Shown here: in pieces, positions 1 to 39,536 of the stretch
Position numbering within the stretch: the first letter of the stretch is position 1
Layout: every line of letters starts with the position of its first letter
NCBI GenBank assembly: GCA_022843605.1
Contig: JALHNI010000009.1
Location: 11,704-75,703 of the forward strand
Direction of reading: 5' to 3'
Length of the DNA: 64,000 nucleotides
Origin: Bryobacter sp.
GTDB lineage: Bacteria > Acidobacteriota > Terriglobia > Bryobacterales > Bryobacteraceae
The notes under the pieces: generated by a model
Database searches by the model: none
What the model was told of the DNA's origin: nothing
What the model saw: only the letters and a program-made list of their open reading frames with translations
Translations under genes and position numbers: made by a program

Positions 1-1
1 A

Positions 2-1162
2 CAGATGGTCCCGTTCATTGATGCGCCGCTGTTGAAACCCAATGAGCACGAGCGGCTTTCCCGAGCCGTGGTTTCTCCGATATCGGATACGTTGCTCAAC
101 CATTGTGAGCGGGCCCTGAATAAGGCACTTTCGACGGGCGCACACGGTTTGCCGCTATTCGGCAACGGCGACTGGAATGATGGGATGAATCTGGTGGGCG
201 CCGCTGGCCGTGGCGAGAGCGTCTGGCTCGCGTGGTTTCTCATCGAAGTGATTCATCGCTTCGCGCCGCTGCTGCCCGAGGCGAGGAGTGAGCCGCTGCG
301 CGCGATCGCGGCCCGGTTGGCCGTCGCCATCGAGACGGAGTGCTGGGATGGCGAGTGGTATCTGCGCGGCTTTTTCGACGATGGTTCGAAGCTGGGATCG
401 CACGCGAATACTGAGGCTCGTATCGATTCGTTGCCGCAATCCTGGGCGGCAATCACGGGCGCCGGCGAGCCGGAGCGGACAAGACGCTCGCTTGCGTCCG
501 CGATGGAACTTCTGGTGCCGGGGCCCGAGCGCATTATTCGGCTGTTTACTCCGCCGTTCGATGTGGCTAATCCCCATCCGGGTTACATTCAGGGCTATCC
601 GCCCGGTTTGCGGGAGAACGGCGGACAGTATACGCATGCGGCAATCTGGCTGGCGCTGGCTTTTGCCCATCAGGGTGACGGTGAGACCTGTTTCCGGCTG
701 CTCGACTTACTCAATCCGGTGGAGCAGGCCCGGGATCTACCGGCCCTCCGTCGATATGCGGTGGAGCCTTATGTGATTTCGGCCGATATTTATACCGCAC
801 CCGGTCTAGTCGGCCGCGGCGGGTGGAGTTGGTATACGGGCTCGGCATCCTGGCTTTATCGCGTTTGGATCGAAAGTGTATTGGGCCTGCGTATCTCCGG
901 AGATACCTTTACGGTGGAGCCCTGTGTGGCCGAATCCTGGACCACTTACTCCTTTACTTATCGTCCCCGCGGCGCCAGTTACCAAGTCACCGTCACTTAC
1001 GACCAGGCGGTCGAGGAGACGGAGATTGACCTGGACGGCGTGCGGCTGGGCGATCGGCACATTCCGCTACGGCTGGATAGCGGCGCGCACACCGTATGGG
1101 TCCGCATGGCTGCGCGCGATGCGCGAGAGATTCAGGAACCCCTGCGGGCACTGGCCGACTAG
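2..1162 (+). CDS. C-terminal part of a GH94-type glycoside phosphorylase / cyclic beta-1,2-glucan synthase-like protein (5' end outside window)
   Basis: The frame is open from the window edge. The motif 'LPLFGNGDWNDGMNLVGAAGRGESVWLAWF' and an (alpha/alpha)6-barrel-like C-terminus are typical of cellobiose/chitobiose phosphorylase and NdvB/ChvB family proteins. Confidence 0.7.
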   Translation, partial: QMVPFIDAPLLKPNEHERLSRAVVSPISDTLLNHCERALNKALSTGAHGLPLFGNGDWNDGMNLVGAAGRGESVWLAWFLIEVIHRFAPLLPEARSEPLRAIAARLAVAIETECWDGEWYLRGFFDDGSKLGSHANTEARIDSLPQSWAAITGAGEPERTRRSLASAMELLVPGPERIIRLFTPPFDVANPHPGYIQGYPPGLRENGGQYTHAAIWLALAFAHQGDGETCFRLLDLLNPVEQARDLPALRRYAVEPYVISADIYTAPGLVGRGGWSWYTGSASWLYRVWIESVLGLRISGDTFTVEPCVAESWTTYSFTYRPRGASYQVTVTYDQAVEETEIDLDGVRLGDRHIPLRLDSGAHTVWVRMAARDAREIQEPLRALAD

Positions 1163-2108: not shown

Positions 2109-2858
2109 CTAAACGTCCGTTTCGCCACCCGGCGATTGACGCTGGTTCATGGCGTCTTCCAGAATCCGGTATCGTTCGTTCGCGCGGGTGAGGTGGTCTA
2201 ACATGGCTTGTTCGGCTTCGGCAACGTCATGCGCGGCGATGGCGGCTAACAGACGCTGATGCTCGGCCAGGGTGATGAACTCCGAGCCGGGCAGGCGCAG
2301 AAGGTCGCGCCGGAAATTGAAGAGCCAGTCGAGCATGGCTTCGCTCAGGATGACGCAGACACTGTTGCCGCTCATCGCGGCGATGGCGGTGTGAAACGCC
2401 ATATCGCGTTTCACGAATTCCGGGGCGTCCTCCAACGCGGCGCGTTGCTGTTCCAGGGCGTGTTCCAGGTTTAAGATGTCCGCCGGCGTCGCATTCTGGG
2501 CGGCGGTCTTCACCATGCCGACTTCGAAAAGTATTCTGGCTTCTTTCAGGTGCTCGAGGGTGGTGGGTGAAGTTTGCAGTAGATGCAGCATGGTTTGACC
2601 GATGCGATCGAACATGTTGCGGGTATCCGGCACTGCGATGCGGGCGCGTTCGCCGTGACTGATTTCGATGAGTCCGGCTGAGCCGAGAGATTGCAGTGCT
2701 TCACGCACGGCCGGCCGGCCCACAGCAAAGCGAGCCATGAGGTCCCGTTCGGAGGGCAGCCGGTCGCCGGGTTGCAATTCGCCGCTGCGGATCATGGTGA
2801 GCAGACGATCCCGTACCTCGTCGGCCAGCTTACGGCGCACGATGGGTTGAGTGCTCAT
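2109..2858 (-). CDS. GntR-family transcriptional regulator with FadR/FCD-type C-terminal domain
   Basis: The sequence 'MSTQPIVRRKLADEVRDRLLTMIRSGELQPGDRLPSERDLMARFAVGRPAVREALQSLGSAGLIEISHGERARI' is a canonical GntR winged helix-turn-helix, followed by a helical FCD-like C-terminus. Start chosen at Met26 of the tracked ORF. Confidence 0.85.
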   Translation of the reverse strand: MSTQPIVRRKLADEVRDRLLTMIRSGELQPGDRLPSERDLMARFAVGRPAVREALQSLGSAGLIEISHGERARIAVPDTRNMFDRIGQTMLHLLQTSPTTLEHLKEARILFEVGMVKTAAQNATPADILNLEHALEQQRAALEDAPEFVKRDMAFHTAIAAMSGNSVCVILSEAMLDWLFNFRRDLLRLPGSEFITLAEHQRLLAAIAAHDVAEAEQAMLDHLTRANERYRILEDAMNQRQSPGGETDV

Positions 2859-2913
2859 GATCTCTGGTCTGATTTTCGTACACTTAGTGGGCAAATTGTG
2901 AGCGCCGGTCCTA

Positions 2914-2932
2914 TGGTATCCTAAGTATACCA
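2914..2932. promoter_or_regulatory. Candidate GntR operator: inverted repeat TGGTAT-N7-ATACCA in the divergent gntR/RLP intergenic region
   Basis: Read directly as tggtat cctaagt atacca, 10 nt upstream of the RLP ATG. It fits the generic GntR/FadR 'GT-N-AC' palindrome logic. Confidence 0.3.
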
Positions 2933-2941
2933 ATTTATCTC

Positions 2942-4216
2942 ATGAATCGCTATGACCGGATCTATGCACGCTATGAAGTTGAAACCTCGTTTCCGCTGGA
3001 GGACGCGATCGGCGTCATGGCCGGCGAGCAGTCTAGTGGCACTTTTCTACAGATTCCCGGCGAGACAGCAGAGCTGAAGGAACGAAGCGGAGCGCGTATT
3101 GAGTGGATTCGAGAGACGGGCTCAGGTGCACAGCCATCTTTGCCTGGGGCGGCGTCGCCGAAAGGTGTAGCCTCGCCGGTGTGGCGGCGAGCAGAAACGC
3201 TGCTCTCCTGGCCGATTGCCAACCTAGGCCCGAGCTTACCGAATCTGTGGGCGACCGTTGCGGGAAATCTCTTTGAACTGCAGCAATTCTCGGCGCTGCG
3301 GCTGGTGGACCTCACGCTGCCAGAGCCCTTCCGGGATGCTTATCTGGGCCCACAATTTGGCGTCGAGGGGACACGGCGGCTGACCGGTGTGGCTGATGGC
3401 CCCCTGATCGGGACCATCGTGAAGCCTAGCGTCGGGCTTTCGCCGGCAGAGACTGCGGCCCTGGTGCAACAGCTCGTCGAGGGCGGGATCGACTTCATCA
3501 AAGACGACGAACTCCAAGCCGACGGCCCACACTGTCCTTTTGCCGAGCGCGTTGAGGCAGTCATGGGGGTAATCCGTGATCACGCTGAACGCACGGGAAA
3601 GAGGGTCATGTTTGCCTTCAATCTAACGGGTGAGATTGATCAGATGCTGGCGCGGCATGACTTGGTCGAGCGGGCGAACGGCACTTGCGTCATGGTGAGT
3701 CTGAACAGTGTGGGCCTGCCCGGGCTGGCGTATTTGCGGCGGCATTGCCGGCTGGCGATTCATGCTCACCGGAATGGCTGGGGCCTATTTCAGCGGTCGC
3801 CGCACATCGGGTTGGGGTACCTTGCCTATCAGAAGATCTGGCGATTGGCGGGCGCGGACCATATGCACGTGAACGGATTGCGCAACAAGTTCTGCGAACC
3901 GGATGAGTCGGTGCTGGCGTCGGCGCGGGAGTGCCTGTCGCCGATGTTCTCGGGCGAGGGCCGCGGCTGTGAAGTGATGCCGGTGTTTTCATCCGGACAG
4001 ACGGTCAGGCAAGTCCACGACACCTGGAGCGGACTCGGCAGCGCGGACCTGATCTATGCCGCTGGTGGCGGTTTGGTGGCCCATCCGGGAGGCGTGGCGG
4101 CCGGCGTCCGCGCGATGCGGCAAGCCTGGGAAGCGGCAATGAGCGGCATCAGTCTGGAACAGCAGGCGGCCACCCACACCGAGTTGCGGCAGGCGCTGGA
4201 GAAGTATGCCGGATGA
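2942..4216 (+). CDS. RuBisCO large-subunit-like protein (form IV, RLP)
   Basis: The segment 'LIGTIVKPSVGLSPAETAALVQQLVEGGIDFIKDDELQADGPHCPFAERVEAV' matches the RuBisCO large-chain TIM-barrel region. No small subunit or CBB-cycle genes are nearby. Its stop overlaps the next gene start (ATGA). Confidence 0.85.
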   Translation: MNRYDRIYARYEVETSFPLEDAIGVMAGEQSSGTFLQIPGETAELKERSGARIEWIRETGSGAQPSLPGAASPKGVASPVWRRAETLLSWPIANLGPSLPNLWATVAGNLFELQQFSALRLVDLTLPEPFRDAYLGPQFGVEGTRRLTGVADGPLIGTIVKPSVGLSPAETAALVQQLVEGGIDFIKDDELQADGPHCPFAERVEAVMGVIRDHAERTGKRVMFAFNLTGEIDQMLARHDLVERANGTCVMVSLNSVGLPGLAYLRRHCRLAIHAHRNGWGLFQRSPHIGLGYLAYQKIWRLAGADHMHVNGLRNKFCEPDESVLASARECLSPMFSGEGRGCEVMPVFSSGQTVRQVHDTWSGLGSADLIYAAGGGLVAHPGGVAAGVRAMRQAWEAAMSGISLEQQAATHTELRQALEKYAG

Positions 4217-5508
4217 CGAACCGGCTTTTGCTGACCTACTACGGTGACGACTTCACCGGCTCCACCGATGTGATGGAGGCGCTTACGGTGCATGGCGTTC
4301 CGACCGTCCTGTTTCTGCAACCGCCGAGTCTGGATGACCTGCGGCGCTTTCCAGATTGCCAAGCGGTTGGGGTGGCGGGAGTCAGCCGTAGCCAGTCGCC
4401 TACCTGGATGCGCGAGCACCTGCCCCCGATGTTTGCGGCTTTGCGGGAACTCGGCGCGCGTCTCTGTCACTACAAGGTCTGTTCGACGTTCGACAGTTCA
4501 CCGACGCACGGCAGCATTGGCTGTGCGGTGGAGGTGGGGCGGCAGGCTTTCGGCAACGGCACGGTTCCGCTGGTGGTGGGCGCTCCGGCGTTGAGACGCT
4601 ATGTGGTTTTTGGGAATCTCTTCGCGTCGGTGCAGGACGAGACGCATCGACTCGATCGGCATCCCACGATGTCCCGTCATCCGGTTACGCCCATGCGGGA
4701 GAGTGACCTGCGGCGCCATCTTGCGCAGCAGACGTCGCTTCCGTGTGGGCTGGTGGACGTCCTGCAGTTGCAGGCCGGGAGTGGCTTGGAGGGGTATCGG
4801 CGCCTGGCGGGGCAGATGCCGCTGGTGCTGTTCGACACTTTGGATGCGGCCAGTGTGCGAGAGGCTGGCCGAGCCATCTGGGAGTCCTGTGGCCAAGCCC
4901 CGCTGTTCGTGGCGGGATCTTCTGGTGTCGAGTACGCGTTGATTGCGTGGTGGCAGGCGCAAGGCCTTCTGGGCCCGGCGCCCGCCCTGCCTGTTGCCAA
5001 GCCGGTGGACCGTCTCTTAGTGGTCTCGGGGAGTTGCTCGCCGGGTACCGGCGAGCAGATTCGCTGGGCTTTGCAGCATGGCTTCGCCGGGGTCGCTGTG
5101 GACCCGGTTCGGTTCGTTTCGGGTGAGGGTGAGTGTGAGCGGGTGCGGCAATTGGCGGGAGCGGTTCTGGCGCAAGGGCAGAGTCCGGTGGTTTACACCG
5201 CGGCGGGGCCGGCGGACGTGGTGAATTCAGATGGCCAACGAATCGGCGAGCGTCTGGGGTCGCTGGCCGCCGAACTGGCCCGCCGGAGCGGGGTTGACCG
5301 AATTCTGATCGCGGGCGGCGACACCTCGGGTCACGCCGGTCGGGCGTTGGGTATTCAGGCGCTCACCATGGTGCGTCCCTTCGCGCCGGGGTCGCCACTG
5401 TGCCGAATCTGGTCAGATGATCCGTCGGTCGACGGCAGGGAGATCCTTCTCAAGGGTGGGCAGGTCGGGGGGGAGTCACTTTTCGGGCAGGTTCGCGCCG
5501 GAGCGTGA
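4213..5508 (+). CDS. Four-carbon acid-sugar kinase family protein (DUF1537, YgbK/OtnK-like)
   Basis: The N-terminal hallmark 'LLLTYYGDDFTGSTDVMEAL' and the C-terminal 'ILIAGGDTSG' nucleotide-binding segment are present. The gene is translationally coupled to the RLP gene. Confidence 0.85.
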   Translation: MTNRLLLTYYGDDFTGSTDVMEALTVHGVPTVLFLQPPSLDDLRRFPDCQAVGVAGVSRSQSPTWMREHLPPMFAALRELGARLCHYKVCSTFDSSPTHGSIGCAVEVGRQAFGNGTVPLVVGAPALRRYVVFGNLFASVQDETHRLDRHPTMSRHPVTPMRESDLRRHLAQQTSLPCGLVDVLQLQAGSGLEGYRRLAGQMPLVLFDTLDAASVREAGRAIWESCGQAPLFVAGSSGVEYALIAWWQAQGLLGPAPALPVAKPVDRLLVVSGSCSPGTGEQIRWALQHGFAGVAVDPVRFVSGEGECERVRQLAGAVLAQGQSPVVYTAAGPADVVNSDGQRIGERLGSLAAELARRSGVDRILIAGGDTSGHAGRALGIQALTMVRPFAPGSPLCRIWSDDPSVDGREILLKGGQVGGESLFGQVRAGA

Positions 5509-5548
5509 TGTACTCATCACACCACTTGTGATAAATTGTCAGAACCAA

Positions 5549-6400
5549 ATGACCCAAACCATTGCACTCTTCGGAGCCGGCGGCAAGATGGGCTGCCGCA
5601 TCACAGACAACCTCAAGGATTTGGCCCACCGTCTCCTGTATGTGGAGGTGAATCCGGCCGGAATTGAGCGGCTCCGGGCACGCGGACTGGACGTGACGCC
5701 GCACGCCGATGCCGTTCGCGAGGCGGATGTCGCCATCCTGGCACTTCCCGATTCGTTGATCGGCAAGGTGGCGCCGAGCATCGTTCCGGGCCTGAAATCA
5801 GGAGCCATCGTGATCTGCCTGGATCCGGCCGCTCCTCACGGCGGTGAACTGCCGGCTCGCTCCGATATCTCCTACTTCATTACGCACCCCTGCCACCCGC
5901 CGGTGATCCATGACGAAACCGAACGCGAGGCGCAGATGGACTTCTTCGGGGCCATCAAAGCCAAGCAGCACATCGTTTGCGCGTTGATGCAGGGGCCGGA
6001 AGCAGACTACGCGACCGGCGAAGCGCTGGCGAGGCAGATGTTTGCGCCGGTGATGAATGCCTACCGGGTGACGGTGGAGCAAATGGCGATTCTGGAGCCC
6101 GCCCTGTCGGAGACGGTGGCGGCCACGTGCATGACGATCATTCGAGAGGCCATGGACGAGGCGATTAAGCGCGGTGTGCCGGAAGAAGCCGCGAGGGAGT
6201 TTTTGTTGGGGCACATTAAGGTGAGTATCGGCATCCTGTGGGGTTACATCAATTCGCCGTACTCCGACGGGGCTTTGATGGCGATTGCTCGCGGCAAGAC
6301 AAAGCTTTTCCAGCCGGATTGGGCCAGCGTTTTTGAGCCCGAGAACGTGATGTCCGAAATCAAAGCGATTACCGCCGGCACATCCGTTGCGCAAAAGTAA
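5549..6400 (+). CDS. NAD(P)-binding dehydrogenase (Rossmann N-terminus, helical 6-phosphogluconate-dehydrogenase-C-like C-terminus)
   Basis: Contains the dinucleotide-binding loop 'IALFGAGGKMGCRI'. Start moved to Met45 (ATG 5549) because the tracked ORF's N-terminal extension overlaps the kinase gene. Confidence 0.6.
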   Translation: MTQTIALFGAGGKMGCRITDNLKDLAHRLLYVEVNPAGIERLRARGLDVTPHADAVREADVAILALPDSLIGKVAPSIVPGLKSGAIVICLDPAAPHGGELPARSDISYFITHPCHPPVIHDETEREAQMDFFGAIKAKQHIVCALMQGPEADYATGEALARQMFAPVMNAYRVTVEQMAILEPALSETVAATCMTIIREAMDEAIKRGVPEEAAREFLLGHIKVSIGILWGYINSPYSDGALMAIARGKTKLFQPDWASVFEPENVMSEIKAITAGTSVAQK

Positions 6401-6416
6401 TAGATTGAAGAGACCG

Positions 6417-8876
6417 ATGCGCTGGATTCTCCTTGCCGCCCTGCCGGCCACTCTGTGGGCCGTTGACTCCGAGGCTGGACAAGCTTTGGAGATTCTTCGC
6501 GCAAATTGTGCCTCCTGTCACTCGAAGGGACTGGCGCTTTCGGGGCTCGACCTGAGCAGCCGCGCGGCGATGTTGAAAGGCGGCTCAGGCGGTCCGGCGG
6601 TGATCGAGGGGAAAGCCGCACAGAGCCGCTTGATTGAGGCGGTGGAACGCAAGGGCAAGCTCGCGATGCCGCCCAATAAGTCACTGAGCCCGGCGGAGGT
6701 GGCCGTCCTTCGCGGTTGGGTGGACGCGGGTGCGGTTTGGCCGGCGGCGGAAGGCCCAGCCGCCGGGCCGATTTCCACGTGGTGGGCCTTCCAGAAGGTG
6801 AAACGGCCGACGGTTCCGAAATCCGGCGACGCGCGGGTTGCGAATGCGGTAGACGAGTTCGTCTTGCAAAGGTTGAAGGCGGAAGCTCTCTTACCGAGCA
6901 AACCCGCTAGCCGGGCGACGCTCGCGCGGCGGGCCTACCTTGACCTATGGGGCCTACCGCCAAGCTTGGCGCAGGTACGTGAGTTTACTCAAGACAAGTC
7001 GCCCGATGCCTGGCCCAAGCTAATTGACAAGTTGCTCGCCTCGCCCCGTTACGGCGAGAAGTGGGGCCGCCATTGGCTTGACTTGGTGCGCTATTCGGAT
7101 ACCGCCGGCTTTGAACTCGACAGCTACATCAACGACGCCTGGCGCTACCGGGATTGGGTGGTGCAGTCGCTCAACGAGGACAAACCGTATGACCGATTCA
7201 TTCGTGAGCAAATTGCGGGCGATGAGTTGTTTCCGGAGGACCCGGTTGCGCATACCGGCACGGGAATCTACTGCGTGGGGCCGAACCGCGACCTTTTTCC
7301 CGACCAGGCCGACATCAACCGCGAAGAGGTGCTGACGGACTACGTCGACACCACCTCTTCCGTCTTTCTCGGCATGACGGCTGGCTGCGCCCGGTGCCAC
7401 GACCATAAGTTCGACCCCATCTCGCAGGAAGATTACTACCGCGTGCGGGCCATCTTTGCGCCGGCCGTGAAGACCAAGGTGGCGCTCAACCGGCTCTCCT
7501 CGCTTGGTTTCGATGTTGCCGAGAACGTGCGGGAATGGAAGCTGCGCGAGACCGGCGACCAGATTCGCGCGGTGCAGGCGCGCTGTCAGGATCACGTGCG
7601 TACCGAGAAGAACGCCAGGATTCCGGCGGAAGCGCGAGAGGCCCTGCGGTTGTCCGATGGTGAACGTACACAGCGCCAGCGCGAACTGGCGACGCAGTAT
7701 CAGCGAGCCGCTCGGGTGAGCGACGACGATGTGCGTGCCTGCCTGTCTCCGGAAGAAACCGCCAAACTGCACGAAATCGAGAAGTCACTCGTGCAGATGT
7801 ACGCGGACTATCGGCCGAAGCCTTTTGCCTGCGGCATCGCTGATTCCTGGAATGTGGCGCCCCGCACGTTTCTACCGTCGCGCGGTTCCCGGCCAGAACG
7901 TGAAGTACAACCTGGCTTTTTTACGGTTCTTGGCGGTGGCGAGGTGCCTCCTCCCGCGGAGAAGCGCGAAGCCACCGGGCCCATTCCGTTGATGCCCACC
8001 ACTGGCCGGCGGGCGGCGCTGGCCAAGTGGATTACTGACCCCAGCAATCCGTTGACGGCGCGGGTGATGGTGAATCGCGTGTGGCAGTATCACTTTGGCC
8101 GGGGACTGATTGCGACGCCCAGTGACTTTGGTACGCGTAGTGGCAAGGCGACCCATCCGGAGCTGCTCGACTGGCTGTCTGCGGAGTTCGTGGAGCGTGG
8201 GTGGTCCTTAAAGCAGTTACATCGCCTCATAATGACTTCAGCGGCCTACCAGCAGACCTCCGTGGCATCAAAGGCGGCGAACGATCGCGACCCATTGAAT
8301 CTGTTGCTTTCGCACTTCTCCCGTCGACGCTTGAATGCTGATGAGGTGCGCGATTCGGTGCTGCACGCGACGGGAGTGCTGAACTTAAAAGCTGGTGGGC
8401 GTCCCGTGGTTCCACCGCTTACGCCTGAGGAGAAGGCGACTCTGACACAACGTCCTGAGAGCGCCTGGGTGCTGACGGCCGATTCATCCGAACACCTACG
8501 GCGTAGTCTTTATCTGATTCAGAAGCGTACCTTCCGCATGCCGATGATGGAAGTGTTCGATTCGCCGGACTCCATGTTGACTTGTTCTCGCCGCGAGTCG
8601 AGCACGACGGCGCCGCAGTCACTCACCCTGCTGAACGGCGTGTTGACGATGGAGCGCGCGCGGGCCATGGCCTTGAAGCTGGCTCCGCAGGAAAATCGTA
8701 CTGCGATCGCGAGTGTGTGGCAGCAGGTGCTGGTGCGTGAACCCAACGAGGCGGAACTGGCCCGGGCAGAAACATTTCTCACCACCCAGAGTAAGAATGC
8801 AGGCGGCAGGACCGAGGCGTTGGTTGAGTTAGTCCGTGCTTTGCTGAATTTAAATGAGTTTCTCTATGTTGACTAA
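6417..8876 (+). CDS. PSCyt1 (Planctomycete cytochrome c) + DUF1549 + DUF1553 domain protein
   Basis: Signal peptide 'MRWILLAALPATLWA', haem-type motif 'CASCHS', DUF1549-like 'RRAYLDLWGLPPS', 'CARCHDHKFDP' and a DUF1553-like C-terminus 'LNLNEFLYVD'. An alternative start lies at 6387. Confidence 0.85.
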   Translation: MRWILLAALPATLWAVDSEAGQALEILRANCASCHSKGLALSGLDLSSRAAMLKGGSGGPAVIEGKAAQSRLIEAVERKGKLAMPPNKSLSPAEVAVLRGWVDAGAVWPAAEGPAAGPISTWWAFQKVKRPTVPKSGDARVANAVDEFVLQRLKAEALLPSKPASRATLARRAYLDLWGLPPSLAQVREFTQDKSPDAWPKLIDKLLASPRYGEKWGRHWLDLVRYSDTAGFELDSYINDAWRYRDWVVQSLNEDKPYDRFIREQIAGDELFPEDPVAHTGTGIYCVGPNRDLFPDQADINREEVLTDYVDTTSSVFLGMTAGCARCHDHKFDPISQEDYYRVRAIFAPAVKTKVALNRLSSLGFDVAENVREWKLRETGDQIRAVQARCQDHVRTEKNARIPAEAREALRLSDGERTQRQRELATQYQRAARVSDDDVRACLSPEETAKLHEIEKSLVQMYADYRPKPFACGIADSWNVAPRTFLPSRGSRPEREVQPGFFTVLGGGEVPPPAEKREATGPIPLMPTTGRRAALAKWITDPSNPLTARVMVNRVWQYHFGRGLIATPSDFGTRSGKATHPELLDWLSAEFVERGWSLKQLHRLIMTSAAYQQTSVASKAANDRDPLNLLLSHFSRRRLNADEVRDSVLHATGVLNLKAGGRPVVPPLTPEEKATLTQRPESAWVLTADSSEHLRRSLYLIQKRTFRMPMMEVFDSPDSMLTCSRRESSTTAPQSLTLLNGVLTMERARAMALKLAPQENRTAIASVWQQVLVREPNEAELARAETFLTTQSKNAGGRTEALVELVRALLNLNEFLYVD

Positions 8877-10278
8877 GTCACGTCGTGATTTTCTAGCTGC
8901 CGCCGGAAGAGGTTTTGGCGCGGTGGCCGCCGCTTCCTTACTGCCATCGAGCTATGGCGCTACGAGTCCCTTGGCGCCCAAGGCGCCACATCAGACGGCT
9001 CGTGCGAAGTCGGTGATCTACCTGTACATGCACGGCGGGGTGAGTCATGTCGATACGTGGGATCCGAAGCCCGAGTTGAATCGCCTCTCCGGCAAGACGC
9101 TGCCGGCCAGTTTCGTCAAGGGCCTCAAGACCAGCCGCATTGATTTCACGAAGGCTCTGGCGCGCGGCAACGCTTGGCCATTCCGTCCACGAGGACAATC
9201 GGGCATCGAAATTTCTGACCTGTTTCCGCACATGTCCGGCCATGCGGATGAACTGGCAATGGTCCGCTCCTGCCACGGCGATGCCTTTGACCATGCGCCG
9301 GCGATGTACTTGCACGCCACCGGATCACAGTTTCCGGGTCGGCCCAGCTTGGGCTCCTGGGTGAGTTATGGCTTGGGCTCAGAGAATCAGAACTTACCGG
9401 CCTTCGTCGTCATGACGGATGGCGCGATGAAGTGCGGTCCGCAGGGCTACGGTGCGGGGTTTCTGCCGGCCGTCTATCAGGGAACGATGTTTCGTGGCGG
9501 TAAGAGTCCGGTGCTCGATTTGGCAAGCCCGGAAGGCGTGAGCCAGACGACTCAGCGGGCCACGCTCGATCTGCTCGGCGATCTTGACCGCCAGCACCTC
9601 TCCGAGCGTCCTTTCGATAGTGATCTTGAAGCGCGGCTGGAGTCCTACGAACTCGCTTTCCGCATGCAGTCCGAAGCGCCGGATGCGGTGGACATCAGCA
9701 AGGAAACCGAGGCGACGAAGCGTCTGTACGGCATCGGAGAAGGACTTTCCGATGACTTCGGCCGCAAGTGTCTGCTGGCTCGCCGCCTAGTGGAGCGCGG
9801 GGTCCGATTTATTCATCTCTACTCCGGAACACACCTCGGCGACGACTGGGACGGTGCGCACAACGACCTTACCGGCTCGCACACGAAAATGGCGGCGAAG
9901 ACCGATAAGCCCATTTCCGGCTTACTGAAAGACTTGGCCGCTCGCGGGCTCTCCGACTCGACGCTGGTGATCTGGGGTAGTGAGTTCGGCCGAACGCCGC
10001 TTGCTGAAGGTCGCAACGGCCGCGACCATCATCCCTACGCCTTCTCGATGTGGTTTTCGGGGGCCGGCGTCAAGGGTGGCCGAGTGCTGGGCGCAACGGA
10101 CGAATTCGGTCTGCGGCCCATTCAGAATCCCGTGGTCTCTCACGACATTAACGCCACGATCCTTCGGATGCTGGGCATGGACCATCTGAAGTTGACTTAC
10201 TTTTATCAGAGCCGCGACATGCGCTTGACTGATGTCCACGGCGAAAACGAGTTTACCCGTTTTCTGGTGGACGGCTAA
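8854..10278 (+). CDS. DUF1501 domain protein (sulfatase/alkaline-phosphatase-like fold, Tat-type signal)
   Basis: Twin-arginine-like 'SRRDFLAAAG', then 'GGVSHVDTWDPKP' and 'WGSEFGRTP...GRDHHP', which are hallmarks of DUF1501. It overlaps the preceding DUF1553 gene, which is the typical pairing. Confidence 0.85.
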   Translation: MSFSMLTKSRRDFLAAAGRGFGAVAAASLLPSSYGATSPLAPKAPHQTARAKSVIYLYMHGGVSHVDTWDPKPELNRLSGKTLPASFVKGLKTSRIDFTKALARGNAWPFRPRGQSGIEISDLFPHMSGHADELAMVRSCHGDAFDHAPAMYLHATGSQFPGRPSLGSWVSYGLGSENQNLPAFVVMTDGAMKCGPQGYGAGFLPAVYQGTMFRGGKSPVLDLASPEGVSQTTQRATLDLLGDLDRQHLSERPFDSDLEARLESYELAFRMQSEAPDAVDISKETEATKRLYGIGEGLSDDFGRKCLLARRLVERGVRFIHLYSGTHLGDDWDGAHNDLTGSHTKMAAKTDKPISGLLKDLAARGLSDSTLVIWGSEFGRTPLAEGRNGRDHHPYAFSMWFSGAGVKGGRVLGATDEFGLRPIQNPVVSHDINATILRMLGMDHLKLTYFYQSRDMRLTDVHGENEFTRFLVDG

Positions 10279-10282
10279 CGTC

Positions 10283-11152
10283 TCACGAAGGCTGGATTGT
10301 CAAAGCGACCCCCGCCAGGATGATTCCGCCGCTGAGCAACATGAGCGGAGTTATAGCTTCGTGGATAAATAACGCGCTCCAGATGACTCCGAACATCGGC
10401 ACCAAGTAAGTCACAGACATCGTGAACGTGGGTCCGGCGTTGCGAATCAGGCGGTAGTAAATGAGATACGCGATCGCTGTGCACAAGATTCCCAGCACCA
10501 TGACACAGCCCCAGGCGAGTAAGTTCGGATTCGCGGCAGGCAGATTGGCGAGCGCGAAGGGGGCGAGCAGGCCAATCGAGATGAGTTGCGAGCCGGTGGT
10601 GGTGGCGATGGGATCGATCCCGTTGAAATGGCGACGCGCGAAATTTGCGGCGAAGCCGTAGCAGAGGCTGGCGGCCAGGCAGGCAAGTACCGGATAGAGC
10701 GAGGCGGCGATCGCCGGTCCGCTGCCGCGATTCAGGATCAGCAGCACGACGCCGCAGAAACCGCAGATCAGTCCGGCGATGGCGCGCGGCTTGAGTACCG
10801 TGGAAAAGGCCACGGCCCCGATGAGCGCACCGAACAGGGGCACCGTTGCGTTCAAGATCGCCGACGTGCCGGCGGGAAGGTGCGCCGAGGCGTAGGCGAA
10901 GAGCGCGAAGGGCACGGTCTGTGTCGCCAAGGCGAGCACGAAGAGTTGCGGCAGTCGTCCGGCGAGCGGCAGAAAGCCGCCCTTCATCAGCAGGAGCGGG
11001 AGAAGGAAGGCGGCGCCAGTCGCGACGCGGGTTGCGGCCATGGGCACAGCGCCGAACTGCGGTACCGCGATTCGCATAAAGAGGAAGGATGCGCCCCAAA
11101 TTACGCCCAAGGCGAGCAGGTCCAGCAGGTCACGGCGCTTGATGTGGTCCAC
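10283..11152 (-). CDS. EamA/DMT-family transporter
   Basis: About ten hydrophobic segments and an N-terminus 'LLALGVIWGASFLFMRIAV' typical of EamA repeat proteins. Confidence 0.8.
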   Translation of the reverse strand: MDHIKRRDLLDLLALGVIWGASFLFMRIAVPQFGAVPMAATRVATGAAFLLPLLLMKGGFLPLAGRLPQLFVLALATQTVPFALFAYASAHLPAGTSAILNATVPLFGALIGAVAFSTVLKPRAIAGLICGFCGVVLLILNRGSGPAIAASLYPVLACLAASLCYGFAANFARRHFNGIDPIATTTGSQLISIGLLAPFALANLPAANPNLLAWGCVMVLGILCTAIAYLIYYRLIRNAGPTFTMSVTYLVPMFGVIWSALFIHEAITPLMLLSGGIILAGVALTIQPS

Positions 11153-11162
11153 ACACTATTCT

Positions 11163-13166
11163 CTACCGCCGTAGGTGGGTCAGCATTTGCTCCACGGCTG
11201 CGGGCGAAATCATGTGGCGTGGAGCGGTGTCGTCGATCTCCAAAGCGAACGCGCCTCGCGTGCCCAGTGCTTCCCTCACTGCCTTTTCGTAGACACGATA
11301 GGCTGCTTCGTAATCCAGGCCATGGCGCACGGCGTTGTGCTGCCGTTCCCCGAAGCAACAGTCGTCGCGGCGATTCAGGATCTGCACTTGTCGGCGGCCC
11401 CAGGCGCCGAGCGCGTATAGGTCGCCGTAGCCCGCGAAGCTGTAGAACGGGGCCAGATACTGCTCTTTGTCGCCTACCGAATCGCCGGTCCGCAGATAGA
11501 GCGGAATGCTGCCGGCTACCGGGAAGCTGTAGGTGATCGAAGGATCGATCGCGGAATAGAGGGTCGTCGTCCAGCCGCCGCCTGAAAGGCCAGCCATATG
11601 TACTTTCTTATAGCGGCCCCGGATCGCATTCAGGCTGATCGCCACGGGCTCCAAAAAGAATTTGAGGGCATTGCCGCTTTCGGGTTTCAGCGCGAAGAGC
11701 TCTCCGTGCGGCAGCGTGCGGCAATCCCCGGGACGCATGTGGGGCATGTAGGCGGCGAGCACCGCGTAGCCCGCTTCAAGGAACCGGTCAATGGCGTGCG
11801 CCATACCTGCGCCGCGTGGATCGGCGGCATCGTCGAAGGTGCAGGCGTGGCCATGCTGCAAAACGATCAACTGGCCGTTTGGCTTCAGCGGCAGGAAGTG
11901 GTGGGTGGTGTTTTCCTGGCCGGCGTCCATGCGAATCGAGTACGTGTCGACGGATTTCAGATGCTTGAGGTCCTTCACCGGGCTGGTGCCGTTCTTGTCG
12001 ACGGAAGCCGGCCGTGTTTTGGGCACGCCCGCTGGGCCCCAGATGTAGCTGACGATCTGCGCGCGCTTCTGCTGGGCAAGAACTTCCGAGGTGACGGTGA
12101 CCCGGCGATCGTCTACCAGCACCGGGGGCGGCAGCATCAGGACGTCCGCAATCTTTGGGGCGAGGCCGTCGGCCATCCATTGAAAGCCGAGGTCGTTGGG
12201 GTGGACGCCATCTACCAGGCCATCGAGCTGACTCGGACCCAATAACGACAGGCCTTCAACGAGAGTGAGGTTCCGGTCGCCGGCATTGATGCGCGCCTTC
12301 ACCACTTCGCGGATATGCTCACGCATCAGCGGGATGCGTGCCTGCTCGCGCGCCATCGCAATGGGTGTGATGGCGATAATCGGCGTGGTGGGGTGCTTCC
12401 TCCGCACGGTGTCCAGAAACGGCGCATAGACCTCTCGCAGGCTTTCGATGGTGGGGTTGTTTTGCGAGAAATCGAGCACGAAGACCGAAGCATCGATTTC
12501 GGCCACCATACTGGCCACCGCTGGCTCGCCTTTGCCGTTGCCGGAGAAGCCGAGGTTGACGAAGTCCAGGTTGAGCTGACGCGCGAGGATCGCCTGATAG
12601 CTGAGCCCGCTGCGGCTGGCGCAGCCACCCTGCGTGATGGAGGTGCCGTAGAAGACCACCGGTTTCGCGGCTGCAAAGCGGCGAGCCTTGGTGAGCGCGG
12701 AGCCTTCATCCAGTCCGATCGCTTTCACGCTGACGGGCTTATACAGCGACAGGTAAAGCGTAAGCTCCCGATCCTGCTTGGGCAGGTTCTCGAAGAAGAC
12801 GTGCTCGATGATCTTGCCGGCCGCCGCATCCTTGGGGGCGATGGCCGTGGAGTGATAAGCGCCGTCGAGGTAGAGGTCGATACCGGTTTGCCCGAAGGCG
12901 TGCATGTTGGCCATGTTGGGTGGCGAAGGAAACTCCAGGCGCATTTTGAGGGTGCTGGAGTCCGTACGGAAGCGGATGCGGCCGCCGCTGGGCGACAGGC
13001 CCAGGTTCCAGACCGCGGGGGGCAGGGTCTCTTTCAGCCGCAGGGGCAGGCGAATGGGCTCGCCTTTGTTCTCGGCGTACCAAGGGAGACCGTGGACGGG
13101 CAAGCGCGGGTCAGGGGGCGCGATCCAGTCGAGGCTAAGCGCGGCAAGTGCGAGCACGAGGTGCAT
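11163..13166 (-). CDS. Secreted esterase fusion: SGNH/GDSL hydrolase (CE2-like N-terminal sandwich) + alpha/beta-hydrolase-like C-terminal domain
   Basis: Signal-like N-terminus, SGNH block I 'VVFYGTSITQGGCAS', block 'GFSGNGKGE', late 'DGVHPND', and a C-terminal nucleophile elbow 'HMAGLSGGGW'. Confidence 0.65.
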   Translation of the reverse strand: MHLVLALAALSLDWIAPPDPRLPVHGLPWYAENKGEPIRLPLRLKETLPPAVWNLGLSPSGGRIRFRTDSSTLKMRLEFPSPPNMANMHAFGQTGIDLYLDGAYHSTAIAPKDAAAGKIIEHVFFENLPKQDRELTLYLSLYKPVSVKAIGLDEGSALTKARRFAAAKPVVFYGTSITQGGCASRSGLSYQAILARQLNLDFVNLGFSGNGKGEPAVASMVAEIDASVFVLDFSQNNPTIESLREVYAPFLDTVRRKHPTTPIIAITPIAMAREQARIPLMREHIREVVKARINAGDRNLTLVEGLSLLGPSQLDGLVDGVHPNDLGFQWMADGLAPKIADVLMLPPPVLVDDRRVTVTSEVLAQQKRAQIVSYIWGPAGVPKTRPASVDKNGTSPVKDLKHLKSVDTYSIRMDAGQENTTHHFLPLKPNGQLIVLQHGHACTFDDAADPRGAGMAHAIDRFLEAGYAVLAAYMPHMRPGDCRTLPHGELFALKPESGNALKFFLEPVAISLNAIRGRYKKVHMAGLSGGGWTTTLYSAIDPSITYSFPVAGSIPLYLRTGDSVGDKEQYLAPFYSFAGYGDLYALGAWGRRQVQILNRRDDCCFGERQHNAVRHGLDYEAAYRVYEKAVREALGTRGAFALEIDDTAPRHMISPAAVEQMLTHLRR

Positions 13167-13183
13167 TCGTGCATGATACGCCG

Positions 13184-15442
13184 TTATTTCTTCTTGATGA
13201 GATTCGTCACGGCGCGGCGGTTCTCTTCGCCGTCGACGATGAGGCGATCGTTGTTGGCGAACCAGACCAGGCTCTTGCCTTCAGTAGTGCGCTGCGGTAC
13301 GCCGGCAAGCAAATCGACCATTCTAGGCCGCGTGCCTTCCAGCACCAAACGAGCTTCGCCCACATAGTATTCGGCATGGTCGCCCCAGCCTTGACGGCTC
13401 TTCGTATCGCGAGTCTCGACGATTTCCACCTTGCCATCGGCGAAGGCCTTCTCGAGACCGCCGTTCGGGCCTTCCCAGTTTGATTCCGAGTTTTCGTTCG
13501 ACGAAAGATAGGCGCGAATCTCCTGGCCCTTTACCTGCAAACCGGGCCGCGTGAGGACCACGCCCCCGCCACGGTAGTGTGCGAACTGATCCTTGTCGGA
13601 GTAGAGCAACTCGGGTGCGCGGACGATGGTGAATACCTGTCCCTTCGCACTCGCCTGCCGGTCCAATAGCTGGCTGACCACCTGTCCATTGGCTTTGAGC
13701 TTTTGCGCGGGACGGTCAATGTCGATGCGATTGGCGCTGAGGCGATTGGCGCCCTGCCACATCACCGCGCGGCCTTCGTAGCGCACCAGCGTATTCTTCG
13801 CGGTGGAGTACATCTCGTTGGCGGTGGCTCGAACGGGCTCGCTGCCATTCATCAGGCCCGCGGCGTTGGCCTTGCGCTCCCCTTCGCGGACACTGCGTAC
13901 CTGGCCCTTGGCGGTGAAATCGCCCGACTTCTGGTCCAGCAGAATGGTGTCGGCGTCAGTCGATCCGCTGGGGTCCCAAACGCGGGCCTTGCCGGTGAGG
14001 TTGATCTCCCCTTTGGCCTGCTCCAGCGAGGCGCGGTCCGCGGTGGCTTGCCGCGGACCTTCCTGATAGCGAAAACCTGTCCACTGCTCAAGCCTGGCCA
14101 GTTCGCCGGAAGTGGGCGAGAAAAACGCTTCGAGGTCCTGGGACCAGGTGAGCACCGGCGGCGCTTTGGAGGCTGGCTGCGCGGCCGGTTCAGTGCGCGT
14201 GGACGACTTTACGCTGCGAAGCTTTTCCAGAACATTGTTCTTGCCATAAGTCATGTAGAGCCGCTCGCCTTCCAGTCGGCGCTGGCGTTGCGTGGGAGCA
14301 TTCGGAATCAGTTCGATCACGCCGGGATCATGCGTTTCCATCCGGTCAATCTCCTCGCCGCCTGGGCGCATCACCAATTCGATGGAATCGCTCGAGAGGA
14401 CCTTGGTTTCGGCGGGAATCGATTTGGGTTTCGGCACGGGTTTGGCCTCCACCCGGGCTTTGCCTTGTGCAAAAGCTTTTTGCAGCGTGCTGGCCGCGTC
14501 CGTGGCGATGAAATCGAGCTGAACGCGGCCCGCGCTCATCACCGTGCGTTCGCGATCATTGCCCGAAATGAGCCGCGCCGCGCCGTTGCCCTCAATCTTC
14601 TGGGCCTGGCCCTTTTCATTGAAGTCGATGCGCAGGGCGTCGGCGGCATACTCGAGTGAACGGCCCTTTTGCTGCTCGGTGCCCACAGCTTGGTTCGCAT
14701 CGACGCGGCGCACGATCCCCTGGTCGAGCTCAACGACGGAGTCCTTGGCGTTCAGAACGAGTGTGTCGCGCGTGAGCTTCGCCCAGGGCTTGAGATAGAC
14801 CTTGCTTTCCAGTTCCTTGTAGAGGGCCTCCCCGGCTTCAACGTGCATGGTCTTCTCGCCGGCGTGCCAGGTAAGGGCGACCGCGCTACGTAAGTTCAGT
14901 TCGCGCAGGGCCGGGTCGTAGTCGGCGCCGACGGCCTGGCCTTCGCCCTGGCCGAACTTGAACCAGACCGGCTTATCGGTGGAGGCTTTGTTGGAGTCGA
15001 GTTCAAACCGGACGCTCGAACTCTTGATTTCGAGAACGCGGTTGGGCTTGGGGCCATCCTCCGGAATGCCCATCGTGATCCGGACATCACCTTCGGAGAA
15101 GAGGACCCGGTCCCCCTTCGTGAAGCGTGCCTGGGCGCTCTCCACCAGGTCGTACTTGGTGCCGGTTGCATCGTAGAGCAGCAATTCCAGGCCTTCAAGC
15201 TCGGTGGACGGAGGATCTTTGATCTCGCGAAAACTGGAGGCGCGGATGAGGGATTTCGGCTTGTCCCCCTGGTTGTTCGCCCATTCCCACTTGGAGGCTT
15301 TGGCGGAGAGACCCATCCCGAGGGGCGCGGGCTTCGCGGGGGCATTGCGCGCCGTGATCTGCTTCTGGCGCAAGTAAGAGTTGCCAACGGAGATCACGAT
15401 GCCGAGAATCGCAATAACAAGCAACCAAGCAAACCGGCGCAT
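13184..15442 (-). CDS. Membrane-anchored protein built of repeated OstA/LptA-like (LptC/LptA fold) modules
   Basis: N-terminal TM anchor 'FAWLLVIAILGIVISV'. Several segments resemble the LptA pattern, for example 'ADGKVEIVETRDTKSRQGWGDHAEYYVGEARLVLEG' and 'ADRASLEQAKGEINLTGKARVWD'. Confidence 0.5.
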   Translation of the reverse strand: MRRFAWLLVIAILGIVISVGNSYLRQKQITARNAPAKPAPLGMGLSAKASKWEWANNQGDKPKSLIRASSFREIKDPPSTELEGLELLLYDATGTKYDLVESAQARFTKGDRVLFSEGDVRITMGIPEDGPKPNRVLEIKSSSVRFELDSNKASTDKPVWFKFGQGEGQAVGADYDPALRELNLRSAVALTWHAGEKTMHVEAGEALYKELESKVYLKPWAKLTRDTLVLNAKDSVVELDQGIVRRVDANQAVGTEQQKGRSLEYAADALRIDFNEKGQAQKIEGNGAARLISGNDRERTVMSAGRVQLDFIATDAASTLQKAFAQGKARVEAKPVPKPKSIPAETKVLSSDSIELVMRPGGEEIDRMETHDPGVIELIPNAPTQRQRRLEGERLYMTYGKNNVLEKLRSVKSSTRTEPAAQPASKAPPVLTWSQDLEAFFSPTSGELARLEQWTGFRYQEGPRQATADRASLEQAKGEINLTGKARVWDPSGSTDADTILLDQKSGDFTAKGQVRSVREGERKANAAGLMNGSEPVRATANEMYSTAKNTLVRYEGRAVMWQGANRLSANRIDIDRPAQKLKANGQVVSQLLDRQASAKGQVFTIVRAPELLYSDKDQFAHYRGGGVVLTRPGLQVKGQEIRAYLSSNENSESNWEGPNGGLEKAFADGKVEIVETRDTKSRQGWGDHAEYYVGEARLVLEGTRPRMVDLLAGVPQRTTEGKSLVWFANNDRLIVDGEENRRAVTNLIKKK

Positions 15443-30779: not shown

Positions 30780-32174
<1,395 letters not shown>

Positions 32175-32178
32175 TTGC

Positions 32179-35220
<3,042 letters not shown>

Positions 35221-38631: not shown

Positions 38632-39536
38632 TCTATCAGGTTCGTCATCTCACGCGCTATTCTTACGCGCTCCCCGTCACCACCACGCACAGTGAACTGC
38701 GCCTGACGCCGCGCGAACTGCCTTGGCAGAACCTCGTGCGCAGTTCCATCACGCTGGACCCGCAGTTTGAGACCATGCGCAGCTTTCGCGACTACTTCGG
38801 CAATAGTGTCCGGTACTGCTGCGTCCTCACGCCGCACCATGAACTCGCCATCACCGCGGAAAGCATCGTGGAGGTGCAGGAGACGAATCCCCTGATTCCC
38901 GCCGCGACCCTGCCGTGGGAACAGGTGCGCAGGGGCCTCCGCGCTTTTGACGATCCCGTAGCCTTGCAAGCTTTCGAACTGGCCGCCGAGTCGCGCTACA
39001 TTCGCTGGACGCCGGCAATCGCCGACTACGCGCGCAGCAGCTTCACTCCCCAGCGGCCGATCCTTGAGGCTGCCGCGGAACTATCCACCCGCGTCCATCG
39101 GGACTTCAAGTACACCCCGGACTCCACGGACATCGATACGTCCGTCGACGATGTCTTTCGGAGCCGCCGCGGCGTCTGCCAGGACTTCGCCCATTTGCTG
39201 ATTGCCATGCTGCGGTCACAGGGTCTTGCTGCCCGATACGTCAGCGGCTATCTGCGCAGCGGCGGCATCGGCGCCGAGGCTTCTCACGCCTGGGTAGGTG
39301 TCTTCGTGCCCGGTAACGGCTGGGTGGACCTTGACCCGACGAACGACGTCGTTGTCGCCACCAGCCACGTCACGCTCGCTTGGGGCCGCGACTACGGCGA
39401 TGTAACGCCGGTGAAAGGCATCAATATGGGTGGCGGCGACCACACCATCGAAGTTGAGGTTCGCGTGGAGCCACTAGCCAGCATTCCCGTGCCGGTCGAG
39501 GTCCGTCGCGTTGCCGGCCGTCGCTGGGACCGTTAG
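38628..39536 (+). CDS. Transglutaminase-family protein (Bact_transglu_N + transglutaminase core)
   Basis: Contains 'MIYQVRHLTRYSYALPV' and the catalytic-Cys segment 'RRGVCQDFAHLLIAMLRSQGLAARYVSGY', then 'SHAWVGVFVPGNGWVDLDPTN'. ATGA overlap with the upstream gene. Confidence 0.85.
   Translation: MIYQVRHLTRYSYALPVTTTHSELRLTPRELPWQNLVRSSITLDPQFETMRSFRDYFGNSVRYCCVLTPHHELAITAESIVEVQETNPLIPAATLPWEQVRRGLRAFDDPVALQAFELAAESRYIRWTPAIADYARSSFTPQRPILEAAAELSTRVHRDFKYTPDSTDIDTSVDDVFRSRRGVCQDFAHLLIAMLRSQGLAARYVSGYLRSGGIGAEASHAWVGVFVPGNGWVDLDPTNDVVVATSHVTLAWGRDYGDVTPVKGINMGGGDHTIEVEVRVEPLASIPVPVEVRRVAGRRWDR

Follow-up and report, generated by a model that had tools for sequence, protein, structure and literature searches.

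A putative D-apionate catabolic operon built around a RuBisCO-like protein in the Acidobacteriota family Bryobacteraceae

What is the role of a RuBisCO-like protein (RLP) that is the sole member of the RuBisCO family encoded in its genome? The question is raised by a stretch of 64,000 nucleotides from Bryobacter sp. (Acidobacteriota, Bryobacteraceae; contig JALHNI010000009.1 of assembly GCA_022843605.1, which is 6.9 Mb long and 95% complete), hereafter called the window. Here the RLP gene is followed by genes for a DUF1537 kinase and a dehydrogenase, and lies divergent from the gene of a GntR/FCD regulator (Table 1). A first-pass annotation had proposed that the three enzymes oxidise, phosphorylate and finally convert, through the RLP, a substrate that could not be named from sequence, in a route not described before. 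Our analysis supports the three-step logic but neither the novelty of the route nor the anonymity of its substrate. The enzymes match ApnO, OiaK and the RLPs of apionate pathways, so that the locus appears to be a fresh member in Bryobacteraceae of the already described D-apionate pathway and no new route, and we infer with fair confidence that D-apionate is the substrate. D-apionate is the acid derived from the plant cell-wall sugar apiose, and its oxidative pathway was reportedly first described by Carter et al. in 2018, in Nat Chem Biol 14:696. The gene-level observations of the first-pass annotation could all be reproduced: the four open reading frames (ORFs), the ATGA overlap of RLP stop and kinase start (4213/4216), the 40 nt between the kinase stop at 5508 and the dehydrogenase start at 5549, whose ATG encodes MTQTIALFGAGGKMG, the two quoted peptides (YYGDDFTGSTDVMEAL and LFGAGGKMG), and the lack of a small subunit and of any Calvin-Benson-Bassham (CBB) cycle neighbour.

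The dehydrogenase, in which the same annotation had seen an atypical partner, can be assigned to the ApnO family as a predicted D-apionate oxidoisomerase (EC 1.1.1.421), the first enzyme of oxidative D-apionate pathways. Its 283 residues, with LFGAGGKMG close to the N-terminus, show the architecture and size of this family, a Rossmann domain with GxGxxG followed by a knotted PGDH_C domain (PF16896, 204.6 bits) in about 275-285 residues, and it is the only PGDH_C protein encoded in the host genome. NCBIfam offers no curated ApnO model. The best solved relative is PDB 5T57 (288.6 bits), a chain identical to the product of a gene on plasmid pBB1 of Cupriavidus necator N-1 (F8GV06), whose UniRef cluster is named D-apionate oxidoisomerase (accession neighbourhood F8GV06-F8GV08). 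Kinetics of F8GV06 with D-apionate are tabulated by Watanabe et al. (2026; PMC13753588), with values taken from Carter et al. (2018). The window dehydrogenase is 48.7-49% identical to F8GV06, which lies within the 39-80% identity that characterised ApnOs show to the reference enzyme AaApnO (PMC13753588). In AaApnO, H113, E183 and H222 form metal site II, E183 and E188 form site I, D68 contacts the coenzyme, and H116 and S239 contact the substrate (PMC13753588). The window protein retains D68, D92, H113, H116, E183, S187, E188, H222 and S239 (AaApnO numbering), and across an alignment of 41 homologues these nine catalytic or metal-binding residues vary little or not at all.

The DUF1537 protein, with its two expected domains (PF07005, SBD_N, 180.7 bits; PF17042, NBD_C, 117.2 bits), appears to be an OiaK-like 3-oxo-isoapionate kinase. 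Its top NCBIfam model is OiaK (NF042436, 526.5 bits), followed at a distance by 3-oxo-tetronate kinase (OtnK, 179 bits), and it is 49% identical to F8GV08 of C. necator N-1, which NCBI names OiaK and which passes the OiaK model with 769 bits (L010:10236-11630). The window kinase falls short of the equivalog cut-off of 700 bits, and this counts against the assignment. However, the kinase of the PGAP-annotated OiaX cluster of Rhizobium phaseoli (L094:10269-11603) scores only 469 bits, so the cut-off seems to track one sub-lineage and to be narrower than the function. The genomic context is that of OiaK: the gene is translationally coupled to the RLP gene through the ATGA overlap, and ApnO follows directly downstream. 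Because of the same cut-off, many true kinases of the pathway carry in PGAP merely the name 'four-carbon acid sugar kinase family protein'.

The RLP would determine which of two described chemistries completes the pathway. We consider it likely that it is a 3-oxo-isoapionate-4-phosphate transcarboxylase/hydrolase of the OiaT type. The same D-apionate module could instead contain an OiaX-like decarboxylase, producing L-erythrulose-1-phosphate and CO2, with unlinked isomerases leading on to erythrose-4-phosphate, but this we regard as improbable. OiaX is indeed the top NCBIfam match of the RLP (NF042437, 449.5 bits), and no other curated RLP model fits it well, yet this score is far under the cut-off of 700 (true OiaX equivalogs score 730-789 bits) and is the same as that of F8GV07, the RLP of the C. 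necator N-1 cluster (445 bits). The window RLP shares 59% identity with F8GV07 and only 41-46% with 27 OiaX equivalogs. A tree of 93 sequences places it in a Bryobacterales clade of 13 sequences, nested in a clade of 77 with 98% support that includes F8GV07 and sequences from Microvirga and Xanthobacteraceae; the OiaX equivalogs stand outside this clade on a long branch.

The active-site residues, mapped onto RuBisCO positions via C. necator CbbL, point in the same direction. The window RLP keeps E60, T65, N123, K175, K201 (the carbamylated lysine), D203, E204, H294, R295, H325, H327, K334, S379, G381 and G403/G404, and departs from RuBisCO in having Ser for K177, Phe for W66, Ile for T173 and Trp for H298. 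By contrast, the substitutions E60D, N123G, H325Q, H327Q and S379G/C are fixed in 29/29 OiaX equivalogs, and not one of these five is found in F8GV07 or in the window RLP, where the corresponding residues are E29, N109, H307, H309 and S350. In RuBisCO, E60, N123, H327 and K334 act in carboxyl handling and in hydration and cleavage, so their retention would be more in keeping with a transcarboxylase/hydrolase than with a plain decarboxylase. The RLP is distinct from OiaX and is encoded together with ApnO and an OiaK-like kinase, as is characteristic of OiaT, and a relative with 69% identity is labelled OiaT by JGI. A DerI equivalog was not found in the host genome (the best match, at 89.6 bits, stays under the cut-off of 240), which also speaks against the decarboxylase.

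Several points weigh against the choice of OiaT, which depends on the exclusion of OiaX, on context and on the logic of the residues. NCBIfam has no curated OiaT model, and no accession of a characterised OiaT is named in the literature searched, a search outside which Carter et al. (2018) fell. F8GV07 is unreviewed in UniRef and labelled just 'Ribulose-bisphosphate carboxylase', and so it is no stand-in for a proven OiaT. A sister clade of RLPs, mostly without ApnO beside them, differs at a single conserved column, so that the sequence of the RLP is by itself insufficient to fix the substrate. TIM-like or RpiB-like erythrulose-phosphate isomerases were found in none of the 94 other loci compared (the R. 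phaseoli reference L094 excepted), but they adjoin just 3/20 OiaX loci, being unlinked in the other 17 of these Rhizobiaceae loci, and their absence therefore separates OiaX from OiaT only weakly. Moreover, what is apparently the same ApnO-OiaK-RLP cluster type has been called first OiaX and then OiaT by the same authors across two papers (PMC13753588), which shows that the two types are hard to distinguish by eye.

The OiaX branch (L094, L095) is itself nested among RLPs that keep the RuBisCO residues, which belong to ApnO- and GH140-linked clusters in Latescibacterota, Myxococcota and Bacteroidota. This suggests that OiaX is a derived offshoot of the RuBisCO-residue-keeping type, although its position could be a long-branch artefact.

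The three genes travel together well beyond the window. We compared 80 RLP loci from at least eight phyla, taking one genome per species and up to 10 kb of flank around the RLP gene. The kinase lies directly 3' of the RLP in 62/68 loci with enough sequence, and ApnO is inside the fetched flank in 28 of the 51 loci that have 5 kb or more of sequence to either side. The co-conservation in related genomes on which the first-pass annotation had staked its reading is thus real. ApnO accompanies 9 of the 13 members of the window's own clade (for two of the remaining four the contig ends too early), and in five genomes of the same family that carry the RLP, the kinase always adjoins it and ApnO lies within 7 kb in four. 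An unbiased clustering of neighbouring ORFs recovered a GH140 apiosidase in 11 loci and, in 21 loci, a protein of 640 residues that is the D-apionate lactonase ApnL by NCBIfam, besides Gfo/Idh/MocA dehydrogenases and MFS, TRAP and ABC transporters. At L014, whose RLP is 82% identical to that of the window, the order is GH140 apiosidase, ApnL, GntR, then divergently RLP and kinase; at L016, it is GH140, GntR, then divergently RLP, kinase and ApnO. These two layouts tie the clade to apiose released from pectin. In Microvirga, RLP, kinase and ApnO lie divergent from a NanR-type regulator, and an ApnL equivalog (899 bits) and a Gfo/Idh/MocA dehydrogenase are encoded alongside. Such relatives, adjoining GH140 apiosidase, ApnL and ApsD-like dehydrogenases, help in proposing the substrate.

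Within Bryobacteraceae the distribution of the module is patchy. The RLP has its nearest kin in Bryobacteraceae and in other Acidobacteriota metagenome bins, and it is present in 7/36 genomes of the family; it was not found in seven genomes of the same genus, three of them more than 90% complete, nor in any of 24 genomes from the rest of the order.

Related RLP-kinase pairs also occur in other settings. In the sister RLP clade (L022-L063, L001, L037-L049; for example L047:8166-12528, L033 and L054), which is found in Acidobacteriaceae and Sphingomonadaceae, the order is GH127 glycosidase, RLP, DUF1537 kinase, Asp/Glu racemase-fold protein and MFS transporter, mostly without ApnO. Below the apionate clades branch the RLPs of two further cluster types that have no ApnO, one of RLP, kinase, TRAP transporter, SDR and pyruvate kinase (L096, L101, L012) and one of VOC protein, RLP, kinase and TRAP transporter (L097, L099, L100).

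On this evidence the window very probably holds an apionate-type module, and the more specific reading, an operon for D-apionate breakdown by the known oxidative pathway called 'route 2', with an RLP most likely of the OiaT type, is itself probable. ApnO would convert D-apionate and NAD+ to 3-oxo-isoapionate, an oxidation accompanied by a shift of the hydroxymethyl branch; the kinase would phosphorylate this product to 3-oxo-isoapionate-4-phosphate; and the RLP would turn the latter into 3-phosphoglycerate and glycolate, products that make further dedicated enzymes unnecessary. An apionate transporter, ApsD and a close ApnL are all missing from the 64 kb. Elsewhere in the genome there are only a weak GH140-like gene and, beside a TonB-type receptor, a distant ApnL-like gene with 338 bits against a cut-off of 750. 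These gaps count against an apionate operon, but 'route 2' takes D-apionate as its starting compound (Watanabe et al., 2026; PMC13753588), and the absence of a transporter, of ApsD and of a close ApnL agrees with this.

The same gaps leave some room for a related acid-sugar route that has not been described, in which the ApnO-like enzyme would oxidise another aldonate (D-erythronate, D-ribonate or a branched acid) and the kinase and RLP would act on the resulting 3-oxo acid. ApnO is promiscuous in vitro, accepting D-erythronate, D-ribonate, L-lyxonate and L-rhamnonate (PMC13753588); its substrate in vivo could therefore be an aldonate other than D-apionate. Furthermore, the kinase and the RLP are both under their equivalog thresholds, no apiose dehydrogenase is encoded in the window, and related RLP-kinase pairs do occur in other contexts (GH127 with a racemase fold, VOC with TRAP, SDR with pyruvate kinase). 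We nevertheless hold such a route to be quite improbable, as the clades of the window RLP and of its neighbours are linked to ApnO, ApnL, ApsD-like genes and GH140 apiosidase, the ApnO residues are unchanged down to the substrate-contacting H116 and S239, and the regulator and its putative operator are common to the apionate clusters of C. necator N-1 and Rhizobium. The reading as a D-apionate operon is therefore retained here. There is next to no chance that the RLP is a 2,3-diketo-5-methylthiopentyl-1-phosphate enolase of methionine salvage (YkrW/MtnW), the outcome that the first-pass annotation had named as fatal to its proposal, or a CO2-fixing RuBisCO of forms I-III, since, despite the RuBisCO fold and the intact carbamylated-lysine and metal-ligand motif, both are refuted by the tree and by model scores far below cut-off (MtnW models NF007095, 165.2 against 409, and TIGR03332, 127.2 against 513.6 bits; rubisco_III, 246.9 against 497; PRK04208, 227 against 438; PRK13475, 149 against 489), and since K177 is Ser, H298 is Trp, neither a small subunit nor CBB neighbours accompany this only RuBisCO-family gene of the genome, and a DUF1537 kinase is coupled to it.

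The regulator belongs to the NanR subfamily of GntR/FCD proteins (NF003011, 294.3 bits against a cut-off of 260), and its orthologues, with 44-77% identity, adjoin RLP clusters in both Acidobacteriota and Proteobacteria. The inverted repeat TGGTAT-N7-ATACCA in front of the RLP gene, in which the first-pass annotation had seen a GntR operator, was verified as TGGTATCCTAAGTATACCA; it has no other match in the 64 kb even with one mismatch and none in 100 shuffles. Allowing at most one mismatch at the same spacing, we found 19 matches in 33 loci that bear the regulator (559 kb) and none in the 62 that lack it (1045 kb). The copies are mostly intergenic, just 5' of an RLP, transporter or regulator gene. 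An exact copy precedes the MFS gene in the C. necator N-1 cluster, L014 has the repeat at the corresponding position, as do, each with a single mismatch, L017 and L006, and the R. phaseoli OiaX cluster has the one-mismatch copy TGGAAT-N7-ATACCA. This co-occurrence is good comparative evidence that the repeat is probably the operator of the NanR-type regulator, and upholds the earlier idea. The regulator is likely a repressor of the operon: it would bind the repeat, which overlaps the RLP leader, and probably repress its own gene as well, until released by an acid-sugar intermediate.

Table 1. Genes and putative operator of the apionate-type locus and of the adjoining pair of exported proteins; positions are those of the window.
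Feature	Position	Strand	Remarks
GntR/FCD regulator, NanR subfamily	2109..2858	-	Pfam GntR and FCD; NF003011; divergent from the operon
Inverted repeat TGGTAT-N7-ATACCA (TGGTATCCTAAGTATACCA)	2914..2932		10 nt 5' of the RLP ATG; putative operator
RuBisCO-like protein (RLP), 424 residues	2942..4216	+	Pfam RuBisCO_large_N and RuBisCO_large
DUF1537 acid-sugar kinase, OiaK-like	4213..5508	+	Pfam SBD_N and NBD_C
ApnO-family dehydrogenase, 283 residues	5549..6400	+	Rossmann domain and PGDH_C; ORF open from 5417
PSCyt1-PSCyt2-PSD1 exported protein	6417..8876	+	Pfam PSCyt1, PSCyt2 and PSD1; CASCH cytochrome c motif
DUF1501 protein, twin-arginine signal	8854..10278	+	Pfam DUF1501, 486 bits

The operon probably does not end with ApnO at 6400. 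The next ATG, that of a PSCyt1-PSCyt2-PSD1 protein with a signal-peptide-like N-terminus, lies 17 nt past the ApnO stop, no terminator-like site was found between the two genes, and in L006 the PSCyt orthologue begins 3 nt after ApnO; the two genes are thus probably co-transcribed. A DUF1501 gene follows; in its product, R10 and R11 are fully conserved across the aligned sequences. The PSCyt/PSD1 and DUF1501 families are among the largest families without an assigned function, and are found in Planctomycetota, Verrucomicrobiota and Acidobacteriota. The literature likewise knows nothing of what these two families do (PMC5615132). For neither protein does the PDB hold a relative by sequence, and an AlphaFold model of the DUF1501 protein, built from an alignment of eight rows, reached a mean pLDDT of 49.5.

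It is tempting to see in this pair a periplasmic module specific to the use of apiose or apionate, in an operon of five genes. The pair might, for example, capture apiose or apiosides, or oxidise them, while these are still outside the cytoplasm, and so replace the absent ApsD, ApnL and transporter. Since the host genome has about 79 matches to DUF1501, adjacency to ApnO could be a matter of chance. Against chance counts the recurrence of one subfamily: in a set of 68 paralogues, the DUF1501 proteins encoded next to apionate genes in the window, L006, L020 and L024 fall together, apart from about 60 paralogues of the host genome, and the same subfamily adjoins the G016 cluster (L156; G016:C262, 3940-7657). 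In total, five Bryobacterales-type genomes have the pair next to apionate genes (besides the window and G016, L006:12500-16355; L020:3572-7421 and 10926-15146; L024:5772-9783). Its placement is of three kinds: downstream, either upstream (L024) or flanking on both sides (L020), and convergent. A strict co-occurrence with the RLP was not found, as the closest DUF1501 orthologues (72-77% identity) are also present in the RLP-less genomes G007, G013 and G030. We therefore put the five-gene module forward only as a tentative and, on balance, doubtful proposal. If true, it would provide the first substrate link for the PSCyt/PSD1 and DUF1501 families, and in any case the repeated attachment of the pair to apionate genes offers a modest functional clue, of a kind seldom available, to two very large families.

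A second pair of PSCyt/PSD1 (1013 residues) and DUF1501 genes is present in the window at 30780-35220 on the minus strand, and the closest paralogous pair in the genome (C47:19092-22829) adjoins a gene of the 3-keto-disaccharide hydrolase family. An EamA transporter and a GDSL esterase encoded downstream are conserved beside the cluster in 0/80 loci. On the other side, positions 1-1162 (+) of the window hold a GH94/GH65C fragment, the C-terminus of an ORF of 2970 residues (upstream part L003:3953-12865) that we take, from its size and domains, for a cyclic beta-1,2-glucan synthase-like protein. It is followed by a TPR protein at 1207-2112, and neither is part of the operon. Further along, the window encodes a fused circularly permuted ATP-grasp and Alpha-E protein of 834 residues followed by an ORF of 302 residues (36127-39536, +), and an ORF of 2391 residues (49174-56349).

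The main gain of this analysis is one of annotation. Under their automatic names, 'ribulose-bisphosphate carboxylase', 'four-carbon acid sugar kinase' and 'phosphogluconate dehydrogenase C-terminal domain protein', the three genes stand apart; they can now be read together as probable D-apionate catabolism, which would extend a pathway for a plant cell-wall sugar to Bryobacteraceae. Two tools can be reused elsewhere: the five-position active-site signature, which separates the OiaX decarboxylases from the clade that keeps the RuBisCO residues, and the pair of NanR-type regulator and TGGTAT-N7-ATACCA repeat, which is conserved across phyla.

How does the locus compare with known systems? The regulator shares its NCBIfam subfamily (294 bits against the cut-off of 260) with Escherichia coli NanR, the GntR/FCD repressor of the sialic-acid regulon. 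The GGTATA hexamers bound by E. coli NanR are similar to the half-site in the window, but this protein serves another regulon and another effector and binds tandem direct repeats, whereas the window has an inverted repeat with a 7-nt spacer. The closest solved structure to the RLP is PDB 3NWR, an RLP of Burkholderia (Paraburkholderia) fungorum (412 bits, about 50% identity over 419 residues). Like the window RLP, it keeps the carbamyl-lysine motif, H294/R295 and H325/H327; at the K177 position it has Asn, as do the VOC-linked RLPs, where the window has Ser, and it does not seem to come from an ApnO-linked clade. The RLPs of the GH127 cassette, which ends in racemase-fold protein and MFS transporter, form the sister clade and are identical to the window RLP at all RuBisCO-site residues, the sole conserved column that differs being the one with Ala in place of G261. 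This cassette shares the translational coupling of RLP and kinase with the window, but is opposite to it in mostly lacking ApnO and the NanR-type regulator and in having a one-domain Asp/Glu-racemase-fold protein.

The OiaX route ('route 1') of Rhizobium and Sinorhizobium (NF042437) shares with the window its layout, a NanR-type regulator divergent from RLP and kinase with ApnO further on, as well as the operator type and the first two steps. It is set apart by its accessory genes, as OiaX loci carry ApsD (20/20), ApnL (17/20) and TIM-like and DerI isomerases (3/20), of which the window has none, and by its RLPs, which bear the five fixed substitutions. Nearest of all stands the pBB1 cluster of C. 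necator N-1, with the order GntR-MFS-ApnO(F8GV06)-RLP(F8GV07)-OiaK(F8GV08). Its genes are ordered ApnO-RLP-kinase rather than RLP-kinase-ApnO, and its kinase passes the OiaK model (769 bits) where that of the window remains below the cut-off (526). The window differs further in lacking the MFS transporter, in its acidobacterial host and in the appended PSCyt/PSD1 and DUF1501 pair. Identities between the two systems amount to 49% for ApnO, 59% for the RLP and 49% for the kinase, and both combine a NanR-type GntR/FCD regulator, the TGGTAT-N7-ATACCA repeat and the absence of downstream erythrulose-phosphate isomerases with RLPs of one and the same clade.

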